Positions 492 through 15,989 of a stretch of 64,000 bases of DNA are shown here, in pieces. The DNA comes from Macrostomum lignano. Lineage: Eukaryota. The position numbers and the translations under genes were made by a program. The notes beneath the pieces are model-generated. The model was not told the DNA's origin, ran no database searches, and saw only the letters and a list, made by a program, of their open reading frames with translations. How positions within the stretch are numbered: position 1 is the first letter of the stretch; every line of letters begins with the position of its first letter. The stretch lies in NCBI GenBank assembly GCA_002269645.1, contig NIVC01001446.1, positions 1 to 64,000 of the forward strand, given 5' to 3'.

Positions 492-1094
492 ATGGAATCT
501 AAAAAGATTTGTACTACGTGTAAAATTGAGAAACCGATGACTAAAGAATTTTTTTGTTGGAGAAATGACACAAAAAAAATTAAAAATCTTTGTCGATCTT
601 GTGAGAAAGTTAAATGTACTATGTGGAGAATAAACAATAAAGATAAATGTAATAAATATGCAAAAAATAAATATCGCACTGATGAAAATTACAAAAATAT
701 TAGTCTAATTAGAGGTAGAATAAATTGGGCATTGAGAACTTTTCATGACAAGCATTATATCTCCTATCTTGGTTGCACAAAAGAATTCTTTTTTGATTGG
801 TTAAATTTCACAAGAAATTATTATGTTCCAAAAAATTATACTGGAAAGTTAGATATTGATCATTTCATTCCCGCTTCTTCATTTAGTTACAAAGACGAAG
901 ATCAGATTAAAAAGTCTGAAAATTGGAGAAATAAAAGATACTTAACTAGCGTAGATAATAACTATAAAAAAGTTAAGCAACCAACCATTGAAGAATTTGC
1001 AAAACAATTGGTGCTTTCATGTATTTTTAAGGCTATTAAAAATGAGCGATCATGCGACGCATGCGAACCGAAGGTTCGAACAATTAGTATTTGA
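492..1094 (+). CDS. Free-standing HNH-type (homing) endonuclease with N-terminal Cys4 Zn finger
   Basis: CxxC...CxxC N-terminus; YLGC..EFF..WL, LDIDHFIPASSF, N-W-R-N and DN..K motifs typical of phage/NCLDV HNH endonucleases; own AT-rich upstream region (ttttttataaaATG). Confidence 0.8.
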   Translation: MESKKICTTCKIEKPMTKEFFCWRNDTKKIKNLCRSCEKVKCTMWRINNKDKCNKYAKNKYRTDENYKNISLIRGRINWALRTFHDKHYISYLGCTKEFFFDWLNFTRNYYVPKNYTGKLDIDHFIPASSFSYKDEDQIKKSENWRNKRYLTSVDNNYKKVKQPTIEEFAKQLVLSCIFKAIKNERSCDACEPKVRTISI

Positions 1095-2648
1095 AGGAGG
1101 ATTGTTAGATGTTCAAAAAGGATTAACAAGCTTACCACCAATCTTTACTACTGGAAGGTATACAAATGAATTACACATCCCGTCTTACAACTTCGCAGGT
1201 TAACCCGTGGCCTGAGTGAGGAAGGCAATGTCCTTGCTAGTCACTATTTGTGGCGACACCTTCAAATTGCGCGAAACCCGTCATACAGCTTCAAGTACCA
1301 CTTCAATTGAGAAATCTTTTGAAGGAACAGAGGTAACTCCTCTTCCCAAAGGTAACAAGCTTGAAGACACGGTGGCAATGCGCAGCCAAGCTCCTAAGTC
1401 GGCAGATATGGAGAAGGTTCAGAGAGCAGACGGAGGTGGGCGGTAATTTATCCGCTTAAGGTGTGCTCCAGCCTATTTCGAAAGATTTAGGGCAAACTGC
1501 CGGGTACTAGGTTAGATTTGAGATTAAATCCTGATAATACACCAAAAGCCGATTCAATTCCCATTAACGGTATTGATTGGTTAGCATACTATCATGACTT
1601 AGCATACAGAGATGCTGATAAGAACTCACCCGAGGAAGCATTAAGATTAAAACATGAAGCTGATAGAAAAATGATTCAAGGATTAGATAACTTACAGGGG
1701 TTATCGGTAAGCCAAAGATTAACTCGGTGGATGGTTAAAAAAATCTTACAGTCTAAAGTTAAATTTGGATTGGGAATTAATTACAATCAACATGGAAATA
1801 ATTGTGTTGAGTGTTTATTATTAAGTGGCGGCGGGTTAAGTTCTGATGAGGCAAAGATTCTTCATAAAGAATATCGAAAACCTAAATTTTATAGAAAAAT
1901 CATGAACTTCAAAAAGAATGAAATTTGGTATGCTGATTTAATGTCGATGCCGAACGAAAGAGGATATAAATATATCTTAACCATATTAGATGGTTTTACT
2001 CGATATGCGTGGGCTGTTCCTTTAAAATCCAAAAAAGGAGAGGATGTTGCGGCTGCTTTTAGAAGTCTTGGAGAAAAAAGTGAAAGGTTGTGTGTTGATG
2101 AAGGAAAAGAATTTTACAATCCTCATATGTATAAATTATATCATTTTGAAAAAGGACAAGAAAGGAAAAAAGACGCGAATGGGGAGTATATTAATAAAAT
2201 TTATTCTATTTACGGCGAAAGTAAAAACGCATTAATAGAAAGATTTAATCGAACTTTAGGTAAGAAATTGTGGTTTCAATTTAGTCTGAATGGAAATCAA
2301 AAGTGGGTAAAAATATTACCAGACGTTGTGAAAGATTATAACAATTCATATCATTCGGCTATAAAGATGACTCCTCAACAAGCTTATAACAATCCTGAAA
2401 AAGTTAAAGTTACTTTTGGAGAATTTGAAAAAAAGAAAACTAAAGGTTTTAAGGTTGGTGATTCTGTTTATATCTATAAATGGAAAGATAAGTTTGAAAA
2501 GGGAAGAAAAGGATATTGGAAAATAAGTGAGAAATTTACTATCAGTAAAGTTTTAAATACCAATCCTACAACCTATATAATTGCTGATAAGGACGGTGAA
2601 GAAATATTGGGTTCTTTTTATGAGAACCAGCTAATGTCTGCGAACTAA
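1042..2648 (+). CDS. PLA2-like domain fused to Polinton DDE integrase; join(1042..1200,1500..2648), about 435 aa
   Basis: Spliced junction reads ELHIPSYNFAG|PGTRLDLRL followed by IDWLAYYHDLAY and HEADRKM (parvovirus VP1u/adintovirus PLA2 motifs); integrase WYADL, CVDEGKEF, IERFNRTL and C-terminal FKVGDSVYI...YENQL; start codon position uncertain. Confidence 0.88.
1201..1499 (+). ncRNA. Group I self-splicing intron, subgroup IC1, 299 nt, no internal ORF
   Basis: P1 CAGGU(1196-1200)/GCCUG(1210-1214) with U.G at the 5' splice site; P3 1257-1263/1432-1438; P4 UGCGC/GCGCA; P5abc with GAAA loop; 11-nt receptor CCUAAG(1393-1398)...UAUGG(1407-1411); P7 1422-1428/1464-1469; P8; P9.0 AG/CU; omega G1499; removal restores the reading frame. 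Confidence 0.95.
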
Positions 2649-3303: not shown

Positions 3304-3552
3304 ACGATACAAAATAGCCAGCAAACCAAAGCGTTCGACGAGAGCGTGTTCTCACCATTCAAAGAGAATTAATCGTTGTAAGTGTGAAATGACTTGTTTG
3401 ACCGAAATGAAGCGAGGATGAGCGAAGCGAGTTGAGCGAAGTGAAGACGAGCGAAAATGAAGGGAAAACAAGTCATTTCACACTGATAAAGGGTTAAATT
3501 GTTTGCAATGGTGAGAACGGTTTGCTGGCTATTTTGTATCGTATATACTACT
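3304..3552. repeat. Maverick terminal region with nested internal inverted repeats
   Basis: Perfect inverted pairs 3304-3327/3519-3542 (24 bp), 3348-3359/3507-3518 (12 bp), 3381-3399/3466-3484 (19 bp); terminal ACTACT. Confidence 0.8.
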
Positions 3553-4497
3553 GGACTCGCTGACAACCTACCTGGATAGGAACAGTGATTTCTGCATTGT
3601 CAACGTCAGCACAGCCAAGTCAGTAGATGTGCAATACGAATATGTGGAGCTCCGAGTTGCTATGTAGGTTTGGTGCTCAGGTTCTTTTCACTTTGTATTC
3701 TATGCTGATAGGCAATACAAGTTTGTCATGCATTTCAAACTGCAGCGAAGGACAGCATTCTGTCGTGAACCTCATGCTGCTCGCCATCTCCTCTTTGGTA
3801 TTCCGATTGCCGCCGGAATGCGGCGAGAGAATGTCACTGAGCGTCACCATCGTGCTGTCGATGTGCGTGTTCCTGCAGCTCACTGACAATTACATACCAA
3901 CTCAAGGAGATTCTGTACCGCTGCTCAGTGAGTGTCGCGGCCGGACTCTTTTATTTTATTGAGATTAAAAATAGTGTCTGTTGAATAAGGACCTGCTCCT
4001 GTGAAATTCTGCAGGCTGGTACTTCAGCATCGCGGTACTTCTGACCATGGCTAATCTGGTTGCTAACGCCTTCGTTCTGAGTTGCCACTTTGAGCAGTTT
4101 TCTGAGCATGCTCGAGTCCCCAATCGTCTGACTCGGCTGCTGTTTCTCAATAGATTCGTCTGCGGGCGCCGATTTTGTCGAGAGCCGTCCAGAAGTAAAA
4201 ATTTTAACAGTGTTGCGCAACGAAGCTCCATCGGAGTAAGTGTTCGTTTACTGCTAGTGCCGTTTTATCAGGAGAAGCCAAACCAAATGTGTCACGGTCC
4301 CACAGGTCAGTGATGCTGACAGCAAAGAAATGAGCGACATCTCGTCGCGACGAACCGTCAACTTCGACTCGCAGTTGGAGCAGCCTTCGCGTTGCCGGGC
4401 CACTGATGTCAACAGCTGGAGCGCTGTCGTGGCCACTGCTGACCGCTGCTTTTTCGCGATCTTTTTCGGCCTGACGCTGGCTTAGATTCTGCTATGA
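3553..4497 (+). pseudogene. Cys-loop receptor subunit copy 1, 3' half, interrupted by the Maverick
   Basis: DSLTTYLDRNSDFCIV matches copy 3 DSITKYLARNDEFCI; TM1-TM2 exon 3746-3927 with small deletions; TM3-TM4 exon from 4015 with a frameshift near 4305 and TAG at 4483-4485. Confidence 0.85.
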
Positions 4498-5083
4498 GTA
4501 GCGTGTCTGTCTGACAGTTAAAAAATAGTTTCTTGAGTTTAGCTAATAATATATCCTTGGTGACATACTTCTCATACTTTTTTTGGCAGCCATAGGCCTG
4601 CAGCTGCCCCATCAAAATGCTTTAATTTTTAATACGCACTCCACAACAAAACCTAATGCGAGTGAGCCACCCTCTGTGCAATTAGTGGTCTGTAACTACT
4701 TTGTCAATTACGTAAATGGGCTTTGAGCAACGTAGAGGTAATAAAACCTACTTAGCTGCTCCGTAGCGTAACTACCTGCAAACTCTATTTGTCAAAAATT
4801 CAATAAATAGTCTTAACTCTTTTTATAAATTTTATTATCTCAATTTGTCTTCGCATCCAATAATAATTGCCCCTATCGGGTTGTTAACGGGCAGGAATTT
4901 ATTGGCTGCAGCTCAAGCTGTCAACGCTTTTAGAGGTTTTAAAAGAGAAATAATTACCGAGGCAGACTCTACCGGGATGTCCAAGTTGGCTGGGGAAGTG
5001 GGGAATGGAGGGGCTGCAACTGCTGGATAAATAATGAGCCCAAACCACCTGTCTGAGCCGCGTCCAGACTCCAGCTCATTAGC

Positions 5084-7550
5084 ATGCCGCAGTCTCCGCT
5101 ATCAAGCTTCATAGTTTTCTTGCTCTGCCGTGCCGCGGCGGCTGCCTCAGTGTCCCCGGATGAGGCCCTGAAAACGGCGCTGAATTTAAATTCCGACTAC
5201 AACAAAGACGTCCGGCCGCCACCGGACAACGGCTCAGCCAACTTGGTGACCGTCTTGTTCAACTTGAAAAGCCTGGCTCATGTGGTGAGTACTTCGGCTT
5301 TGTCGATTTTTTGTGAGAACAATGTTGAATTTTCGAGCAGATCGTGAGCATTAAATTATTTCTAACCAAACAATGAAGGACTCGGCAACGCAGGAGATCG
5401 TGCTGCAACCCTGGTTCAATTTGGTACGTGACTCATTCTTTTTATTAGAGGCAGGGGGGTTGTGTGCACCCTGGCGCAATTTAAGCGACATAGGCACACA
5501 ACCGGCGAGAGGCATTACTGCCCATTCCGCCGATTCCCCTGAGCAGGCATACAAGCGCGCGGATACGTTACGCAGGCACACACTCACACAGGAGTGTACA
5601 GCGGCACCAACATTATTTATTGTTAGGCATGTACACTTCACTGCGCCTTGGGGGGGTTGGCTCTCAAGGCCGTTAATTGCACAAGCGAGCCAAGCCAAGA
5701 TTCCAATCCAGCCCCAAATTAATGTGGCTGCACTTGGAATCGAGCCTGGGTCGCGGCACACCAGAGCAGCTGCGCTACCGCTGGGCTACGGCCCCCCCTG
5801 TACGTGACTCATAAGTTCAGTGCTGCCGCAGAGACATTGACATATCGAGTTTTATTGCATCATACTCACGGTGCAGCCATGAGCTATCGATTCATTTAAT
5901 TTGCACTTTCACTACAGTACTGGCGAGACAGCCGCCTGGCCTGGAAAGGAAAATTCAACTCTACCTTCGATAACGTGAGCTCCATTTTTGTACCAGCCAG
6001 TCTGCTCTGGCAACCGGATGTGGCCTTCTGCAACCTGTAAGTGCGACACTTTTTCCTTGGGCTTGATCATTCCTATGCAATTGCAGCCATACCGCTTTGA
6101 CAAGTCTCCCAATGGCACCCCGATTGTTCTCTTAGAGAAACTTCAAGATAATGGACTAACGGTGACATTCATCTAATGGTACTCATGTTGACCTTTCTCA
6201 TACTCACCTTTCAGCCTGCACTTCCGGCGCACCTCCAGCGATAAAGTTTTCCTGACTGTGAGCAGCGACGGCATGGTGCTGTTCCTTGTTGAGCTGCTCT
6301 CCAGGTCCAAGTGCGAAATGAATATGGCCAACTTTGCCTATGACACGCAGATCTGCCACCAGCGCGTATCTTCAGTGGTGCACACGAGAAAAACCACTGC
6401 GCATCGAGCCTGGACCACCTGGAATCACGCCTTCCCTCTTCAAGAACCACGACTTCTGCGTGATGAACGTCAGCGTTTCAAATTCTATCGATAAGTGGAA
6501 CTAAGATATTGTTCAGCTGCAGGTGGAAATAAAGGTAGAAACTTCTCAGAATTTGGTTGAGTTGGAACGGGGATCAGACGCTTTTTGTGGACTCCCCTTT
6601 CATAGTCCCCGTTTTATCGCAGAGCCAGTTTCACCTTTGACACTTTCAGCGTAAAGCACTATTCTACTTCATGAACCTGATCATTCCGAGTCTCGTGCTG
6701 CTCTACATCTCTACCCTGGTCTTCTGCCTGCCGCCCGAGTGCGGAGAGCGAATATCATTGAGATTCACCATCGTGCTGTCTATGTGCGTGTTCCTGCAGC
6801 TCAGCAGCAACTATATGCCTCCACAGGGGGACTCTGTGCCTCTGCTCAGTGAGTTTCGAACTAATTTCACTCCAACACTTTGTTCGCTGATAGTGAACTA
6901 CAGACTGGAATATTGTGACTCATGACCTATTTGTCCTCCTCCAATTTCCAGCCTGGTACTTCAGCCTCGCGGTCTTTCTGACAATGCTTCACTTGATTGC
7001 CAACATTTTCGTACTGAGCTGCTACTTTGAGCATTCGTCCGAGAATGAGCATACCAAAGTCCCAGGCCGGCTAACGCGACTTCTGTTTCTCAATAAGTTT
7101 GAATGCGCCCGGCTGCAGTGCAGAATGTACTACCAGGTTCGAAACCACGGCGAAACCGCCGCTGTACGGAGCTCGGTGAGAGTAAGGGAGATACGGAGAC
7201 CTGGGTTGGATTTTGTTAAGCCTGCCAAGCCTGTGTCGGATTTGGCAGACCTGCAAGTTTCTGTGTCCATTTGCGGTTAAAAATTGGCACCCCATTCGCA
7301 GGAATCCAACGAGAGCGAGTTGAACGTCGTCTCGCCCAGGCGACCAGCTACGCCAAGTCAACCGCAGGCGGAGCAGACTCCGCGTTACCGAGACAACGAC
7401 CCTCGCAAAGAATGGATCCCCATTGTTGCCGCCGCCGACCGCTGCTTCTTTGCTGTCTTCTTCAGCCTGAAGCTGGCGCTGACGCTGACGCTGTTAATCC
7501 TGGAGATCACGAACTCGCGGACCAACTGCGACATGTCGAGTAATGATTGA
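5084..7550 (+). pseudogene. Cys-loop receptor subunit copy 2, probably disabled; exons 5084-5284, 5379-5423, 5918-6036, 6215-6534, 6650-6848, 6952-7550
   Basis: Signal peptide, WRDSRLAW, WQPDV, Cys-loop CEMNMANFAYDTQIC, LPPECGERIS; frameshift in A-run 6389-6393, in-frame TAA at 6502-6504 and 7278-7280. Confidence 0.85.
5437..5799 (-). mobile_element. tRNA-derived SINE (family 1), full length
   Basis: Minus-strand head with A box TAGCCCAGCGG and B box GGCTCGATTCC; A-rich tail; 13-bp TSD GTACGTGACTCAT at 5424-5436 and 5800-5812. Confidence 0.85.
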
Positions 7551-8499
7551 AGATGAAGAGTTGTGAAGAACTGGGCAGTCACGACCACGAAGTATTTTGG
7601 ATTAACAGAGACAACTTCGAGTTACAGATGGACTTTAGATAGTCGGAAGAGTATATCCGAAGAAGGAATATTTATTTATCCTAGGAAACCGCAATGAATA
7701 CTATATTTTTAACAGCTGCACAAACTACTACTAGTGCTACTCGTTGCAAATTAACCTACAATAGGAAAGTCCTATAAAATTCTATCACCTTTGACGCAAA
7801 AGAAGCATCACTCACTGACTTTGATGCACTTTTTGGGATCAGCAAAAAGCGGTCATGCTGATTTTATTAATTGAAAGTTTTTGAGCCAACTGACTATGTA
7901 GCTCGTGTCAAAGCAAACGGACAGATTTTATTTGCTCAGCGAATCTCTGTTTGTTAATAACTATCAACGATTGACTGAAAGCTCAAATATGAATAGGATT
8001 ATGAAAAGATTCTGACAGCGGGCCACAAGGCTTGAATCAGAGAGAATGAGTAGAATGCGTTTAGACTCTCTGGGAGCTAGCGAGGAGAAAAACAAAGAAG
8101 AGAAATTGGCACATAAAAAGCAGATACCTGCAAAGACAGGCGATTTAACGTGCAGAAAACGTACAATTCTGAACATTGGAAGGGTGGCCCAGGGAGAAGC
8201 GTGATGTTATATAACGATATGCATATATGCAGTTTTAGTGAGCCACGACCAAATTTGATGGAACAGAGTGCTTTGCCAAGCAAGGTCGGGCCAACGGATC
8301 CGGGCAGAAGGGTAAACACTGAGGCCAGGGATGTGGAACTGACTGAGATGAGTGGATTCTGAGGGATAGACGAACGGAAAGCACTGCCACTAAAAAGTAT
8401 ATAGGATGGCCTGCATGACCAGTGGTGGATGCAGTTAAACCCACAAGACTTCAGCTGAAATTCTAAGCAATTCCGTGCGACCAGGGCTACTGATCTCAC

Positions 8500-10968
8500 A
8501 TGCTGCTACTAGGCCTAATTTTGATCTGCGCTGTCACCGCGACCGCCACGGTGCCAGATGTCTCCTCTGATGAGCGAATTGCCGCGGCACTGCGCTTAAA
8601 GTCTGCCAACGGCTACAACCCGGATGTGAGACCGCCACCGGATAATGGGACGGCTAATCTGGTCCGGGTGCACACCAATTTTAATAGTCTGGTGGCTGTC
8701 GTGAGTTTTGGACGATATCAACTAATGAACTCGACATATGTACGCAAATGTTCCCACATTTACTCATTAATTATTCATTATTTCTGCTGTTCAGAATTCC
8801 GCATCTCAGGAGGTCAGTCTACTCCTGTGGCTTACACTGGTAAGACATATTTAGAGACCGCGAATCCCTCTCTAATGTTCTGCAGATTTTTCAGGATCAG
8901 CAACAGGTAAAAAGTCATCAACTTTTTTCCAGTCCTGGACGGACCGCCGACTTTCCTGGCACGGTCGCTTCAACGACAGTTTGGACAGCGAGACGGCGGT
9001 CTACTTTCCGGCCAGGCTGCTGTGGCTACCGGATGTGTCTTTCATCGATCTGTGAGACCGGGATGTGTTCGTTACCATTTTGATTCTCACTAGCTGCTCT
9101 GTTCTACTAGGTAGATACTCGTTAATATAAATTATATATCATATTTATATTATATATTATATATTATATTTATATTGATATTTATATTAATATAAATGAA
9201 AAAAATCAATGAGTCCATTGGTTGTTTATACGAGTGTACAGTCTGCAATGTGGATACCCACTTTGCTTTTGTATATTCCTCTAACTGGTAAGTAGAAGCC
9301 CTCTATAGAATATTACTGGGACTTTGTACAACATTTTTCTTGCGGATTCAACGAGTTGACGATGCGGCATTACTGAAGCATTTTAAGAGTAAGCAAATCG
9401 TGCGCCTGAACTGCATGGTTAATGGAAGCTCTAATAGACGTTACTAAACTCAAGAACAATAAAGAAGCAATCCACATGATGCTTGCAACGTTACACTGTC
9501 CAACCAAAACTTGCAGCTTGTTCATACAGCGGGTGTCATTTAGCAACGCAATGGCTCACGTTAGCTCTCAGGGATCGGTAATGTACACCTCCCAGTACGT
9601 GATTACCAGCAAGTGCCCAATGAGAATGTTCGAGTTTCCCTATGACAAGCAGCGCTGCGTAGTGCCCATCTCGTCAGCCATTCATTCGAAGCAGGTGCTG
9701 GCTTTGCACATCGGAGCCTACCTAGAGAACGACTCCATCACGAAGTACCTGGCCCGCAACGACGAGTTTTGCATTACAGGAGCGACAATCAGGAAGACTG
9801 CGGACTACTACTTTGATATTCTGCAGTTTGCCATCACTTTCAAGGTAAGAATATTGCGTCTGTATCTAACAAATTTAATTGGCTTGCAAAATTTTTAGGC
9901 AACATCACGTTCCAATATTTTTTTCAGAGACGGCCCATTTTCTACGTGATAAACCTAATCCTGCCCAGCCTCCTGCTGCTCGCCATCTCCACCGTCACCT
10001 TCCGACTGCCGCCGGACTGCGGCGAGCGGATGTCATTCAGCATCACCATCGTGCTGTCCATGTGCGTGTTCCTGCAGATGGTTAACGAGCACACGCCCAC
10101 GCAGAGTGAATCCGTCCCTCTGCTAAGTGAGTTCTGTGGACATAAGTCCAGAAATCTGCTGCAGTTAATTGCACAGGAGTTGTCACTCGACAAAGAGCGA
10201 TATAAATCTATTCGTTTATAATTTACGTTTATGTTTATGAAAATGATTGGTAATGATTTTTGAGTGACAACAGCTAAGTTACTCAAGTCAAAATTCGCAA
10301 AAGAAATTTAGCTATAAACTTAGAGTGGCTTGGGTTATCACGTTCTTTGTTGAGTTGTTTTTTAATGCGAGTCTATCTGCATACCAGACGACCTTGTGAA
10401 TGAATGACTGCATACTTACTTGCCGGACCTCGTAGTTTGTTGTTTATTCTTCTTATAAATGCAGCGCGAGCTCCGGCATCCTTTACTTGTACCCACGGCT
10501 TTGTATGTACCACTTCCTCTCGACGTTATCCCACTCGATTTCAAATTTTTCTCATACGCACTCGCCCACTCTCTTCTATTTCCTGGTCCAGCCTGCTACT
10601 GCACTCTGGCGGTGGTGATGACAATGACCGTCGTCTTGGGCAACGCCTTCGTTCTCAGCTGCCACAGCCGGTGTTGCCGCGCCGCTCCCCCGGGACGTCT
10701 GCTCCGGACGCTGTTCCTTCACTCGTTCGTCGCTCGTCGGAGCCGTCGGCAGCCGGAAGCCGACGGTTCAGTCCGGCAGAGCTTGTCGCCCGACAACGAG
10801 TCTGAGACCGCCTGCGAGAACGCTCTGCGCTGTCAATGGAGCACCATAATTTCAGGCGTTGACACCTGCCTGTTTGCGTTCTATTTTGGCATTACCGTGT
10901 CTTTGGTGATAGCACTGGCCGCTATTGGACTTGTTACAGATGGCCAGAAGTGCATCAATGAGGACTAA
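8500..10968 (+). CDS. Cys-loop receptor subunit copy 3, intact; exons 8500-8700, 8795-8839, 8933-9051, 9517-9844, 9928-10126, 10592-10968
   Basis: Consistent intron phases; Cys-loop CPMRMFEFPYDKQRC; TM1-4 with LPPDCGERMSFSITIVLS; no vicinal Cys-Cys. Confidence 0.9.
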
Positions 10969-14921: not shown

Positions 14922-15674
14922 TCAGAACACGGACTGGCACTCGCAGATGTACTTGCGAGCACTGCTGCAGGAGTCATCGTCAACGCCTCCAGTTGAATAG
15001 CCATGCCAAAGATTTGTGCACTCCAATGACGCAGGACCGTTCGGCTCTCCAGAGTGCCATACGCTGGCGTTCACGGGCAGGTTGCAGGCGGCCCAGAACC
15101 AGTCAGAGTGCGCATTCGAAGTTCCAGATCCGCCAAGGAAAAAATCAGACGAGCTGCCCATCAGCTGCTTCAGCGACCTCAGGTGCAGAGCCTCATCAAG
15201 GTCGATCGCATCAGAGAACTTGGTCAGTCCGGGATCCGCACTGCAGGTCAGGTTGGCGTTGTTCCAGGTGAGTGTCACCGACGTGACCACCTTGTACGAT
15301 GTGCCGTATCTCGTGTGCTCGTATCCGGACGGACACAGGCGACCCGGAGGTACGCCGGGCAGAGACCTCACATACACAGTCACCTGGTGAGTGCAGCTCG
15401 GCACAGACTGCACACGGTGACTGCACGCATCGAACAGGAACAGCTTGCACTGACAGGCTCCAGCTGTCAGCACTGAGAAGGCCTGACACTTGTCCTTCCT
15501 AGCGCAGGCGAGGCTGCATTCGAGCGGAGTGCACAGACCGGACACGGTGCTGGTGAAGTCGGAGCTCACGCAGTCCAGTCCGGTGGTTTGGTGGAATTTC
15601 AGCCTGGCAGAGCTGCAGGACTCGGACAGCACCGCAGGGACCCACAGCAGCAGTAGAAAAACACAAAGCTGCAT
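14922..15674 (-). CDS. Secreted C-type lectin (N-terminal PAN/apple-like Cys domain + CTLD), EPN type, intronless
   Basis: Signal peptide, TWNNANLTC, FFLGG, WHSGEPNG, DDDSC..ARKYICE. Confidence 0.88.
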   Translation of the reverse strand: MQLCVFLLLLWVPAVLSESCSSARLKFHQTTGLDCVSSDFTSTVSGLCTPLECSLACARKDKCQAFSVLTAGACQCKLFLFDACSHRVQSVPSCTHQVTVYVRSLPGVPPGRLCPSGYEHTRYGTSYKVVTSVTLTWNNANLTCSADPGLTKFSDAIDLDEALHLRSLKQLMGSSSDFFLGGSGTSNAHSDWFWAACNLPVNASVWHSGEPNGPASLECTNLWHGYSTGGVDDDSCSSARKYICECQSVF

Positions 15675-15989
15675 TGGGCTTAATTTGTTTTGCTTCTAAT
15701 GAACAAATAATTCGGTAAACGTTAATACCTTTTAAGATACGCCGGGTCTTAACAGGTTAGAAGGAAATTCTAAGGCTTTTATGAACAGTCAGAAAGCAAC
15801 TCCTTTTCAGTCAGAAAACTTCTGATTGGTTTATTTTTTTTAACTAGAACGCAGAAATTTCAGCGAGTAAGTTGCATTTTACTTCCGTACTCTAGCAGTT
15901 TCCTGGAAATGAATTCCAACCTTAATAAACCTCTCTAAACAAGCTCAACCGCCATCGATTGTCTTGCGATGAGCCAGTGCTTTTCTAGG

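Follow-up and report, generated by a model that had tools for sequence, protein, structure and literature searches.

A PLA2-integrase fusion gene of an integrated Polinton in Macrostomum lignano carries a group I intron in its calcium-binding loop

Introduction

Retroviral Gag-Pol and Gag-Pro are made by −1 frameshifting, by which retroviruses bring enzymes into their particles, and A_AAA_AAC is a classic retroviral slippery site. In Polinton-class elements, PLA2 domains have been described in genes separate from the integrase, namely PLA2X of Alpha adintoviruses (PMC8502044) and 'CAP' of Sf Mavericks (PMC5803895), and three further reports likewise present Polinton PLA2 as separate genes (PMC3671162, 10.64898/2026.06.19.733378 and PMC11296320). 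For adintoviruses, −1 sites have been predicted in Penton and Hexon-Adenain, and no PLA2-integrase frameshift is named in the accessible part of that work (PMC11071296). Among PLVs, group I introns have been reported to occur in no more than a few groups of protists (PMC12220804), and other nuclear group I introns only in rRNA genes of microbial eukaryotes (PMC3679873). The accessible parts of PMC11131425, PMC12567637 and 10.64898/2026.10.13.758929 contain nothing about the PLA2-integrase fusion, a frameshift in it, or introns in Polintons of animals; the last of them mentions nucleases and possible RM systems. We found no paper on these three subjects in mostly non-subscription literature, on which supplementary genome maps (PMC8502044 Figs S1-S2; PMC12220804 Tables S11-S12) may bear.

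Here we describe a locus of Macrostomum lignano, whose genes mark the host as an animal, in which PLA2 and integrase share one gene, with a group I intron in the PLA2 Ca loop. Judged from sequence, what appears to be new in its relatives is an integrase lying in the −1 frame behind PLA2, with a putative slippery site between them.

Results

The element and the start of the gene

The window is a 64,000-nucleotide stretch of contig NIVC01001446.1, and coordinates refer to its forward (+) strand. It begins in the interior of an AT-rich element whose right end, TACTACT, lies at 3546..3552 (no strand assigned) and is followed by host DNA with Cys-loop receptor genes. The right end is the only one in the window; the TIR and target-site duplication of a Polinton were found in the sister copy C151 (TIR 354 bp, ends AGTAGT, duplication 6 bp), with sizes that fall within the Polinton ranges given in the accessible part of PMC10748475. 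The element combines an rve integrase with an A32-like ATPase (Pox_A32, E 4e-4, below cut-off), as Polintons/Mavericks do, and its other neighbours are a discoidin fibre and a core protein with a pX-like match (PF05829, E 8e-4), the latter in an ORF separate from PLA2-integrase. In family A, motifs of a putative protease and PolB (KxxxNxxYG; HW, FDS, QxxxxxxCG) were seen by eye. No library match was obtained in family A for pPolB, cysteine protease or double-jelly-roll capsid, and PHROGs, PDB and Pfam searches with the protease and PolB returned nothing useful; the family-B capsid matches PF21738. The genome contains at least 96 family-A 3′ junctions, 28 scored family-B RF00028 matches and 24 family-C matches. 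Two copies (C4985 and C3108) are near-identical to the window copy and have a common flank with it, and therefore represent one insertion. The gene described below is the PLA2-integrase fusion gene of an integrated Polinton.

Upstream of it, an exchangeable slot (492..1094), delimited from the ORF list and a slot table of sister copies, holds an HNH-like ORF in the window, and an Eco47II-family nuclease or another ORF in sister copies. The HNH-like and Eco47II-like ORFs are unrelated. The nearest named ESM atlas cluster of the former was HNH (0.88), which serves as a lead only, and PHROGs, PDB and Pfam searches with it gave no useful match. Its 3′ end overlaps exon 1 in a different frame.

Exon 1 (1042..1200), defined from intronless alleles and copies, runs from ATG 1042 through 53 codons to ...NFAG and encodes the first half of the Ca-binding loop; its pN/pS was about 0.3 in 27 copies with open frames. 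The original prediction had raised the alternative that a 1-nt indel near 1090 altered the true N-terminus, pointing to a CDAC motif in the upstream overlapping frame. Comparison of sister copies spoke against this. When 20 copies were aligned over 1042-1200, the length change was 0 in 14, +30 in three, −30 in two and +7 in one (a copy that is also broken downstream), so that differences of 0 or 30 bases account for 19/20. CDAC sits inside a variable 30-nt unit with mini-hairpins (1048..1078), of which the aligned copies carry 0, 1 or 2, and the start context is constant regardless of the gene occupying the slot, indicating that the N-terminus was not altered. The start Met was confirmed by three intronless alleles of the same family A (C3967, C3031 and C1051).

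A group I intron in the calcium-binding loop

As originally predicted, the intron opens with an in-frame TAA (1201-1203), and the unspliced frame from 1042 is limited to 53 codons. The intron (1201..1499) is 299 nt long, contains no ORF and matches RF00028 over 1191-1490 with 60 bits against a gathering threshold of 50 (E 8e-15); the 0 matches of the whole-window Rfam gathering scan were a filter miss. We found a P1 helix with a U-G pair at the 5′ splice site (U1200-G1210), a P3-P9 core with G-C in P7, and a terminal G (G1499) with P9.0. P7 is formed by 1422-1428 with 1464-1469 in the P7/P8 catalytic core (1422..1469), and three of its pairs are compensatorily swapped in the family-B intron; we take this helix assignment to hold by analogy to the Tetrahymena core. 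Across 11 copies, 99.3% of 583 cells in the named helices were paired, compared with 37-48% in slid controls, a figure that is not a probability because the sequences are related, and 6/53 pairs had changed on both sides. MFE folding of the intron alone gave z −1.6, which is uninformative for a pseudoknotted RNA.

The junction FAG|PGT was placed at 1200|1500 on the basis of the intronless alleles, which read F/Y-A-G-P-G-T from the same Met, of the homologs (contiguous [YF]xGPG in 50/120 of those listed, a 3-residue insert in 0/120), and of the P9.0 pairs 1470-1498 and 1471-1497, each present in 10/11 copies. The same three lines exclude a 3′ splice site at 1490, which would add GKL. Spliceosomal removal was rejected on inspection of the sequence, as the ends are TA..TG and nearby GT/AG choices break the frame. 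Empty sites were also found in family B (19 exact-pattern matches, 4 checked). Family C gave no Rfam match in 9 loci, and its IE-like core is therefore recognized by eye only. We regard it as virtually certain that the intron and the fusion are real.

It had been proposed that ribozyme efficiency could gate integration; on such a reading, selection would maintain the splicing efficiency so as to limit or time the event. Features in keeping with such a gate are the conserved intron structure, the stop that unspliced RNA meets 0-4 codons past the junction in the copies inspected, and the terminal A of most copies, which could slow step 2. However, the intron is optional. Intronless alleles in the same family keep open frames of 431-432 codons, a presence/absence pair occurs in another 90% cluster (P0003/P0273), and RF00028 had no match in the 19 metagenomic and 6 IMG/VR relatives scanned. 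The stop codon itself is variable, the codon after the junction being TAA in 23, TAG in 1 and TAC/TAT in 9 of 33 readable family-A loci; the TAA at 1201 is incidental, and the TGA that stops the Tyr-codon copies 4 codons later lies within the guide sequence and belongs to its pairing. The position of the intron would be explained by the element's only GGNCC, which it splits as GGT|CC. Unspliced RNA yields neither enzyme, and the intron therefore cannot tune the PLA2:integrase ratio. We consequently hold the gate to be improbable, and favour a ribozyme intron that is selfish or shielding.

PLA2 and integrase in one protein

Removal of the intron joins the 53 codons of exon 1 to 382 codons of exon 2 (1500-2648), giving the predicted protein of about 435 aa with PLA2 and integrase in one frame. 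The PLA2 part of exon 2 (1500..1775; PF08398 and model) begins with PGT, followed by HDxxY at 1593-1607 (His, Asp and Tyr at nt 1593, 1596 and 1605) and a downstream Asp at 1662. Together with the Ca loop and the family score, which is above the PF08398 cut-off in intronless alleles (E 1.3e-8 and 2e-7), these are the marks of a parvovirus-type PLA2. The rve integrase (1851..2648; PF00665, E 8.2e-8) has its catalytic residues at D 1935, D 2097 and E 2238. The residues of both motif sets are conserved in 48-50 of the 50 homologs with the contiguous loop, and 26-27 of the 27 intact copies retain them; both domains are under purifying selection (pN/pS 0.07-0.20). When the frequency of the fusion was checked, 69/120 listed homologs carried PF08398 and PF00665 in one protein. 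Neither the window protein nor either of two intronless alleles gave a Chromo match that would indicate an adintovirus-type C-terminal chromodomain; a chromodomain is present in some relatives. The pX-like domain at the C-terminus of PLA2X was likewise not found, the C-terminus of the window protein being integrase.

The model of a natural intronless allele consists of two confident domains and a low-confidence linker (pLDDT < 50 at 140-160). Its PLA2 part aligned with rice PLA2 2wg7 (Z 7.2, 93 aligned, rmsd 4.2) and its integrase part with foamy-virus (PFV) integrase 4bac (Z 19.8, 245 aligned, rmsd 4.5), and no parvoviral PLA2 chain was among the structural-search matches listed. The linker (1755..1850), a candidate protease site, begins with a conserved K-V-K-F-G-L-G-I and continues into a variable stretch with SGGGL. 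The motif K-hydrophobic-x-hydrophobic-G-x-G follows PLA2 in 38/50 homologs and precedes a hypervariable stretch; SGGG is not conserved, and the strict adenoviral protease consensus occurs in 10/50 linkers only. The core protein of the element contains KQGG-ILP, as does the pX cleavage site, and six G-x-G-[LVI] repeats. The linker K-x-x-x-G-x-G would fit a protease site with Lys at P4, although the GxG motif may instead be part of the PLA2 fold. Indirect support for a polyprotein may be seen in this motif with its linker, in the core-protein repeats and in the −1-frame relatives described next, and we consider a packaged polyprotein rather probable.

A −1 frame in metagenomic relatives

We then consider metagenomic relatives; capsid and ATPase genes are present on the longer of their contigs. 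The loci used, the best 80 of 441, were found with a fusion query, so that the counts are not population frequencies; 39 were fused, 34 encoded PLA2 immediately before the integrase in a reading frame of its own, and 7 had integrase only. Of the 34 split loci, 20 have the integrase shifted to the −1 frame and 1 has it shifted to +1; in the other 13 the frame is unchanged and a stop intervenes. The frame overlap in the −1 loci comes after the GxG motif. A strict slippery heptamer was found in 17/20 overlaps, whereas control windows gave a mean of 1.7 (maximum 5 in 1000), and in 9/38 fused linkers; for A_AAA_AAC the figures were 12/20 and 3/38. The first Met of the integrase frame lies after the catalytic Asp1 in 14/15 cases in which Asp1 was located. 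All 20 loci fall below 90% identity; they make up 11 clusters at a 70% threshold and 3 at 60%. Downstream folding gave z <= −2.1 in 11/19 folded loci (L216 omitted), and the strong stems mostly begin 5-7 nt past the slippery site, with compensatory changes. The remaining 8/19, mostly A-runs, have no stem and may represent errors or slippage at A-runs. A heptamer with a 3′ stem, the composition of a frameshift cassette, is therefore present in these relatives at the sequence level, and a −1 frameshift in them appears highly probable. The window linker contains no slippery heptamer, and its fusion is in frame.

A different reading sees no packaged, cleaved polyprotein here, taking the product to be a protein whose two domains stay joined, or the fusion to be neutral, with the −1 frames arising by decay or homopolymer errors. 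The 13/34 plain same-frame stops and the 8/19 stemless cases would agree with it, as would the published Polinton PLA2 genes that stand apart from the integrase. Against this, the bias towards −1 is 20:1, and A_AAA_AAC with a stem at fixed spacing recurs in sequences below the 90% identity level together with compensatory changes. Furthermore, 21 of 120 database relatives of L258 are fused, and 84/99 of the others start inside the conserved N-terminus, 39 of them after Asp1, late starts to which contig ends and gene callers could contribute. The poorly predicted linker between two well-predicted domains also argues against a permanent two-domain protein, which we consider unlikely. Under the preferred reading of a Gag-Pol-like polyprotein, the integrase would normally be produced as an extension of PLA2, just as Pol extends Gag, and the window's lineage, having no heptamer, would make integrase and PLA2 1:1.

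Splicing and the internal methionine

Expression from the start at 1042 very probably needs splicing. The competing possibility is that integrase is made without it, from an internal promoter or from Met 1671, and that the intron, above all in its terminal-A and family-C forms, merely inactivates PLA2. Translation from Met 1671 (1671..1673), the first Met in frame inside the gene, would yield 325 aa with a complete D-D-E, and its context, AAAAATGA, is that of Met 1042. The last intron base is A rather than G in 73/96 family-A pattern matches, and family C offers no 3′ junction, in frame and following a G, that would restore Pro-Gly. No exon-exon joint was found in the contigs of five runs guessed to be RNA (X14, X15, X16, X17 and X19; two references), an uninformative result.

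On the other side, 11 AUGs lie between 1042 and Met 1671, and this Met is a conserved PLA2-helix residue, kept in 41/50 homologs (chosen for an uninterrupted loop). The terminal-A copies (n=9, picked for open frames, mosaic) still gave pN/pS of 0.31 in exon 1 and 0.08 in PLA2, values that could be inherited or due to mosaicism. According to the accessible part of PMC6545197, a coral mitochondrial intron without terminal G still ligates exons in vivo. Taken together, we think it quite unlikely that integrase is made without splicing, and retain splicing as the probable route to both enzymes.

Absence of GGNCC and an Eco47II-family nuclease

Four 10-kb family-A stretches, which represent one family and are not independent, contained 0 GGNCC against 13.5, 11.4, 11.1 and 11.7 expected, compared with 26 against 28 in the host flank. 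Gly-Pro was absent from the long ORFs in five stretches, and in intronless copies the GGNCC of the Ca loop is the sole site kept. Gly-Pro at this place is not strictly unrecodable, for Gly-Ala occupies the Ca loop of P0010, P0017, P0027 and L188.

A candidate for the cognate nuclease was found in sister copies. One ORF passes the PF09553 RE_Eco47II model (30.9 bits vs 25.9; 87 of 96 alignment members), and its predicted fold, of the PD-(D/E)XK type, has EcoO109I and AvaII as top matches; these enzymes and the Eco47II family presumably read GGNCC-core sites. Family-B introns carry it within P2, as an ORF of 159 aa or longer, in the manner of a homing intron, and no ORF is present in the window intron. 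A 66%-identical copy of the nuclease ORF lies upstream of exon 1 in 13/56 family-A/C loci, all intron-bearing, an association without statistical weight because only 2/56 of these loci are intronless. By eye, no contig bearing an intronless allele contains any of the nuclease's 111 matches. An Eco47II-like gene is missing from the window copy, and none was found in 111 metagenomic and IMG/VR loci. A lineage-wide loss of GGNCC was considered and rejected, the depletion being only mild in fused metagenomic loci (88 vs 124 expected), with most IMG/VR loci showing none. These data suggest, with fair probability, that the intron is linked to GGNCC as a shield or through homing.

Host DNA is full of GGNCC, and a 5-bp cutter would threaten it too.

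Discussion

The mechanism we propose has several steps. The group I intron would probably have to self-splice before either enzyme is made. PLA2 would then likely carry the integrase into the particle in the style of Gag-Pol, the element protease is predicted to cut after K-x-G-x-G in the linker, and relatives would join PLA2 and integrase by −1 ribosomal frameshifting. By interrupting the sole GGNCC of the element, the predicted nuclease target, the intron has probably secured its own persistence. The chain as a whole, a Gag-Pol-like PLA2-integrase polyprotein gene with a selfish or shielding ribozyme intron, is one that we favour slightly. More tentative is the broader picture, which we put forward as a possibility only: a large Polinton lineage may package its integrase with a PLA2 carrier like Gag-Pol, by in-frame fusion or −1 frameshift, and the two kinds of self-splicing intron at one codon junction here may protect the element from its own GGNCC nuclease without any methylation. 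Functional group I ribozymes, many of them lacking the otherwise universal terminal G, would then be at work on mRNA of the polymerase-II type inside animal nuclei.

If PLA2 and integrase form a polyprotein tuned by a frameshift, the route by which Polinton integrase reaches new cells becomes directly testable. If the frameshift is true, many database 'integrases' of the group are truncated gene calls. The introns sit in a protein gene of animal chromosomes, and natural alleles that are intronless or end in terminal G or terminal A can be compared. The GGNCC link suggests that an intron could serve as self-protection against a restriction-type nuclease.

Compared with described systems, the locus resembles PLA2X and 'CAP' in having a parvovirus-VP1u-type PLA2 domain, for which a role in membrane entry was proposed there, in a Polinton-class element. 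Unlike those proteins, whose PLA2 ends in a pX-like domain, the PLA2 of the window is joined to integrase and pX is found in another gene. As in the PLV introns of Paulinella, Desmodesmus and Rhodomonas, which are described in the accessible part of PMC12220804, the intron belongs to RF00028, is in the range of about 300-380 nt and lies within an integrated element; whereas the Rhodomonas intron is in a short gene before MCP, that of the window is in the PLA2 Ca loop and in an animal nucleus, and, unlike the protist introns, some of those in this genome's copies have an Eco47II-family ORF inside or beside them. Mobile group I introns with homing endonucleases, including collaborative homing as presented in the accessible part of PMC11296320, share with it the conserved site, the nuclease inside or adjoining the intron and the intronless alleles; here, in contrast, the nuclease is a relative of short-site restriction enzymes (PF09553), and the element has no such site elsewhere. 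Finally, the arrangement is like Gag-Pol in placing a structural module first and an enzyme second, with A_AAA_AAC and a 3′ stem in relatives, and differs from it in that the element is a DNA virus, the carrier is PLA2, and in the window's lineage the two are fused in frame.

Introns at the Ca-loop junction

The window's PLA2–integrase gene is interrupted at FAG|PGT, within the PLA2 Ca loop, by a family-A group I intron. Inspection of the 3′ splice site in this family revealed that the last intron base was A instead of the universal G in 73 of the 96 matches, while the G-binding pair was unchanged in these terminal-A introns. The group includes that of C151, a sister copy with intact TIRs and TSD. 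We also found a second intron type, family C (24 pattern matches in the genome), which sits at the 5′ junction used by family A (L105 and L108–L119; for example contigs C103 and C486 of G000). The two types have P2 and peripheral sequence in common and differ in their cores, that of family C appearing IE-like by eye. The 3′ end was readable in 11 of 12 family-C loci, and in these 11 the frame was broken just past the junction or the product was without Pro-Gly; the full downstream frame was retained in most such loci.

Exon 1 and neighbouring genes

Short GC-rich hairpin units with GAA/TTCG loops (window 1048–1078; L033:1686–1712; L107) are gained and lost in exon 1 in multiples of three bases, and units of this type are present in intron loops too. 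An exchangeable slot at window 492–1094, and its equivalent in sister copies, holds an HNH-like, Eco47II-like or acidic ORF, and whichever occupies it overlaps the exon-1 start in every case. Elsewhere, a family-B element (L077) carries a primase-helicase (426–2945; PriCT_2, D5_N) alongside a split PolB-like region, and a fibre-like ORF at locus L021 (6222–8276) matches the discoidin (F5/8 type C) domain at E = 1.5e-11. On the host side, about 75 bases separate the element end from the first exon found of a Cys-loop receptor gene cluster (window 3627–10968; PF02932), and a C-type-lectin-like ORF was recognized by eye at 14922–15695 (−).

The junction in other lineages

Many relatives, both fused proteins and the metagenomic L258 and L214, carry a DUF5679 domain N-terminal to PLA2 and a chromodomain C-terminal to the integrase. 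Database homologues that start at PGT or just before (P0003/P0273, P0008, P0012 and P0026; one at 47% identity) suggest by their protein starts that other lineages may be interrupted at the same FAG|PGT junction. In P0010, P0017, P0027 and the metagenomic L188, Gly-Ala replaces Gly-Pro in the Ca loop, possibly an alternative, second route to GGNCC loss.
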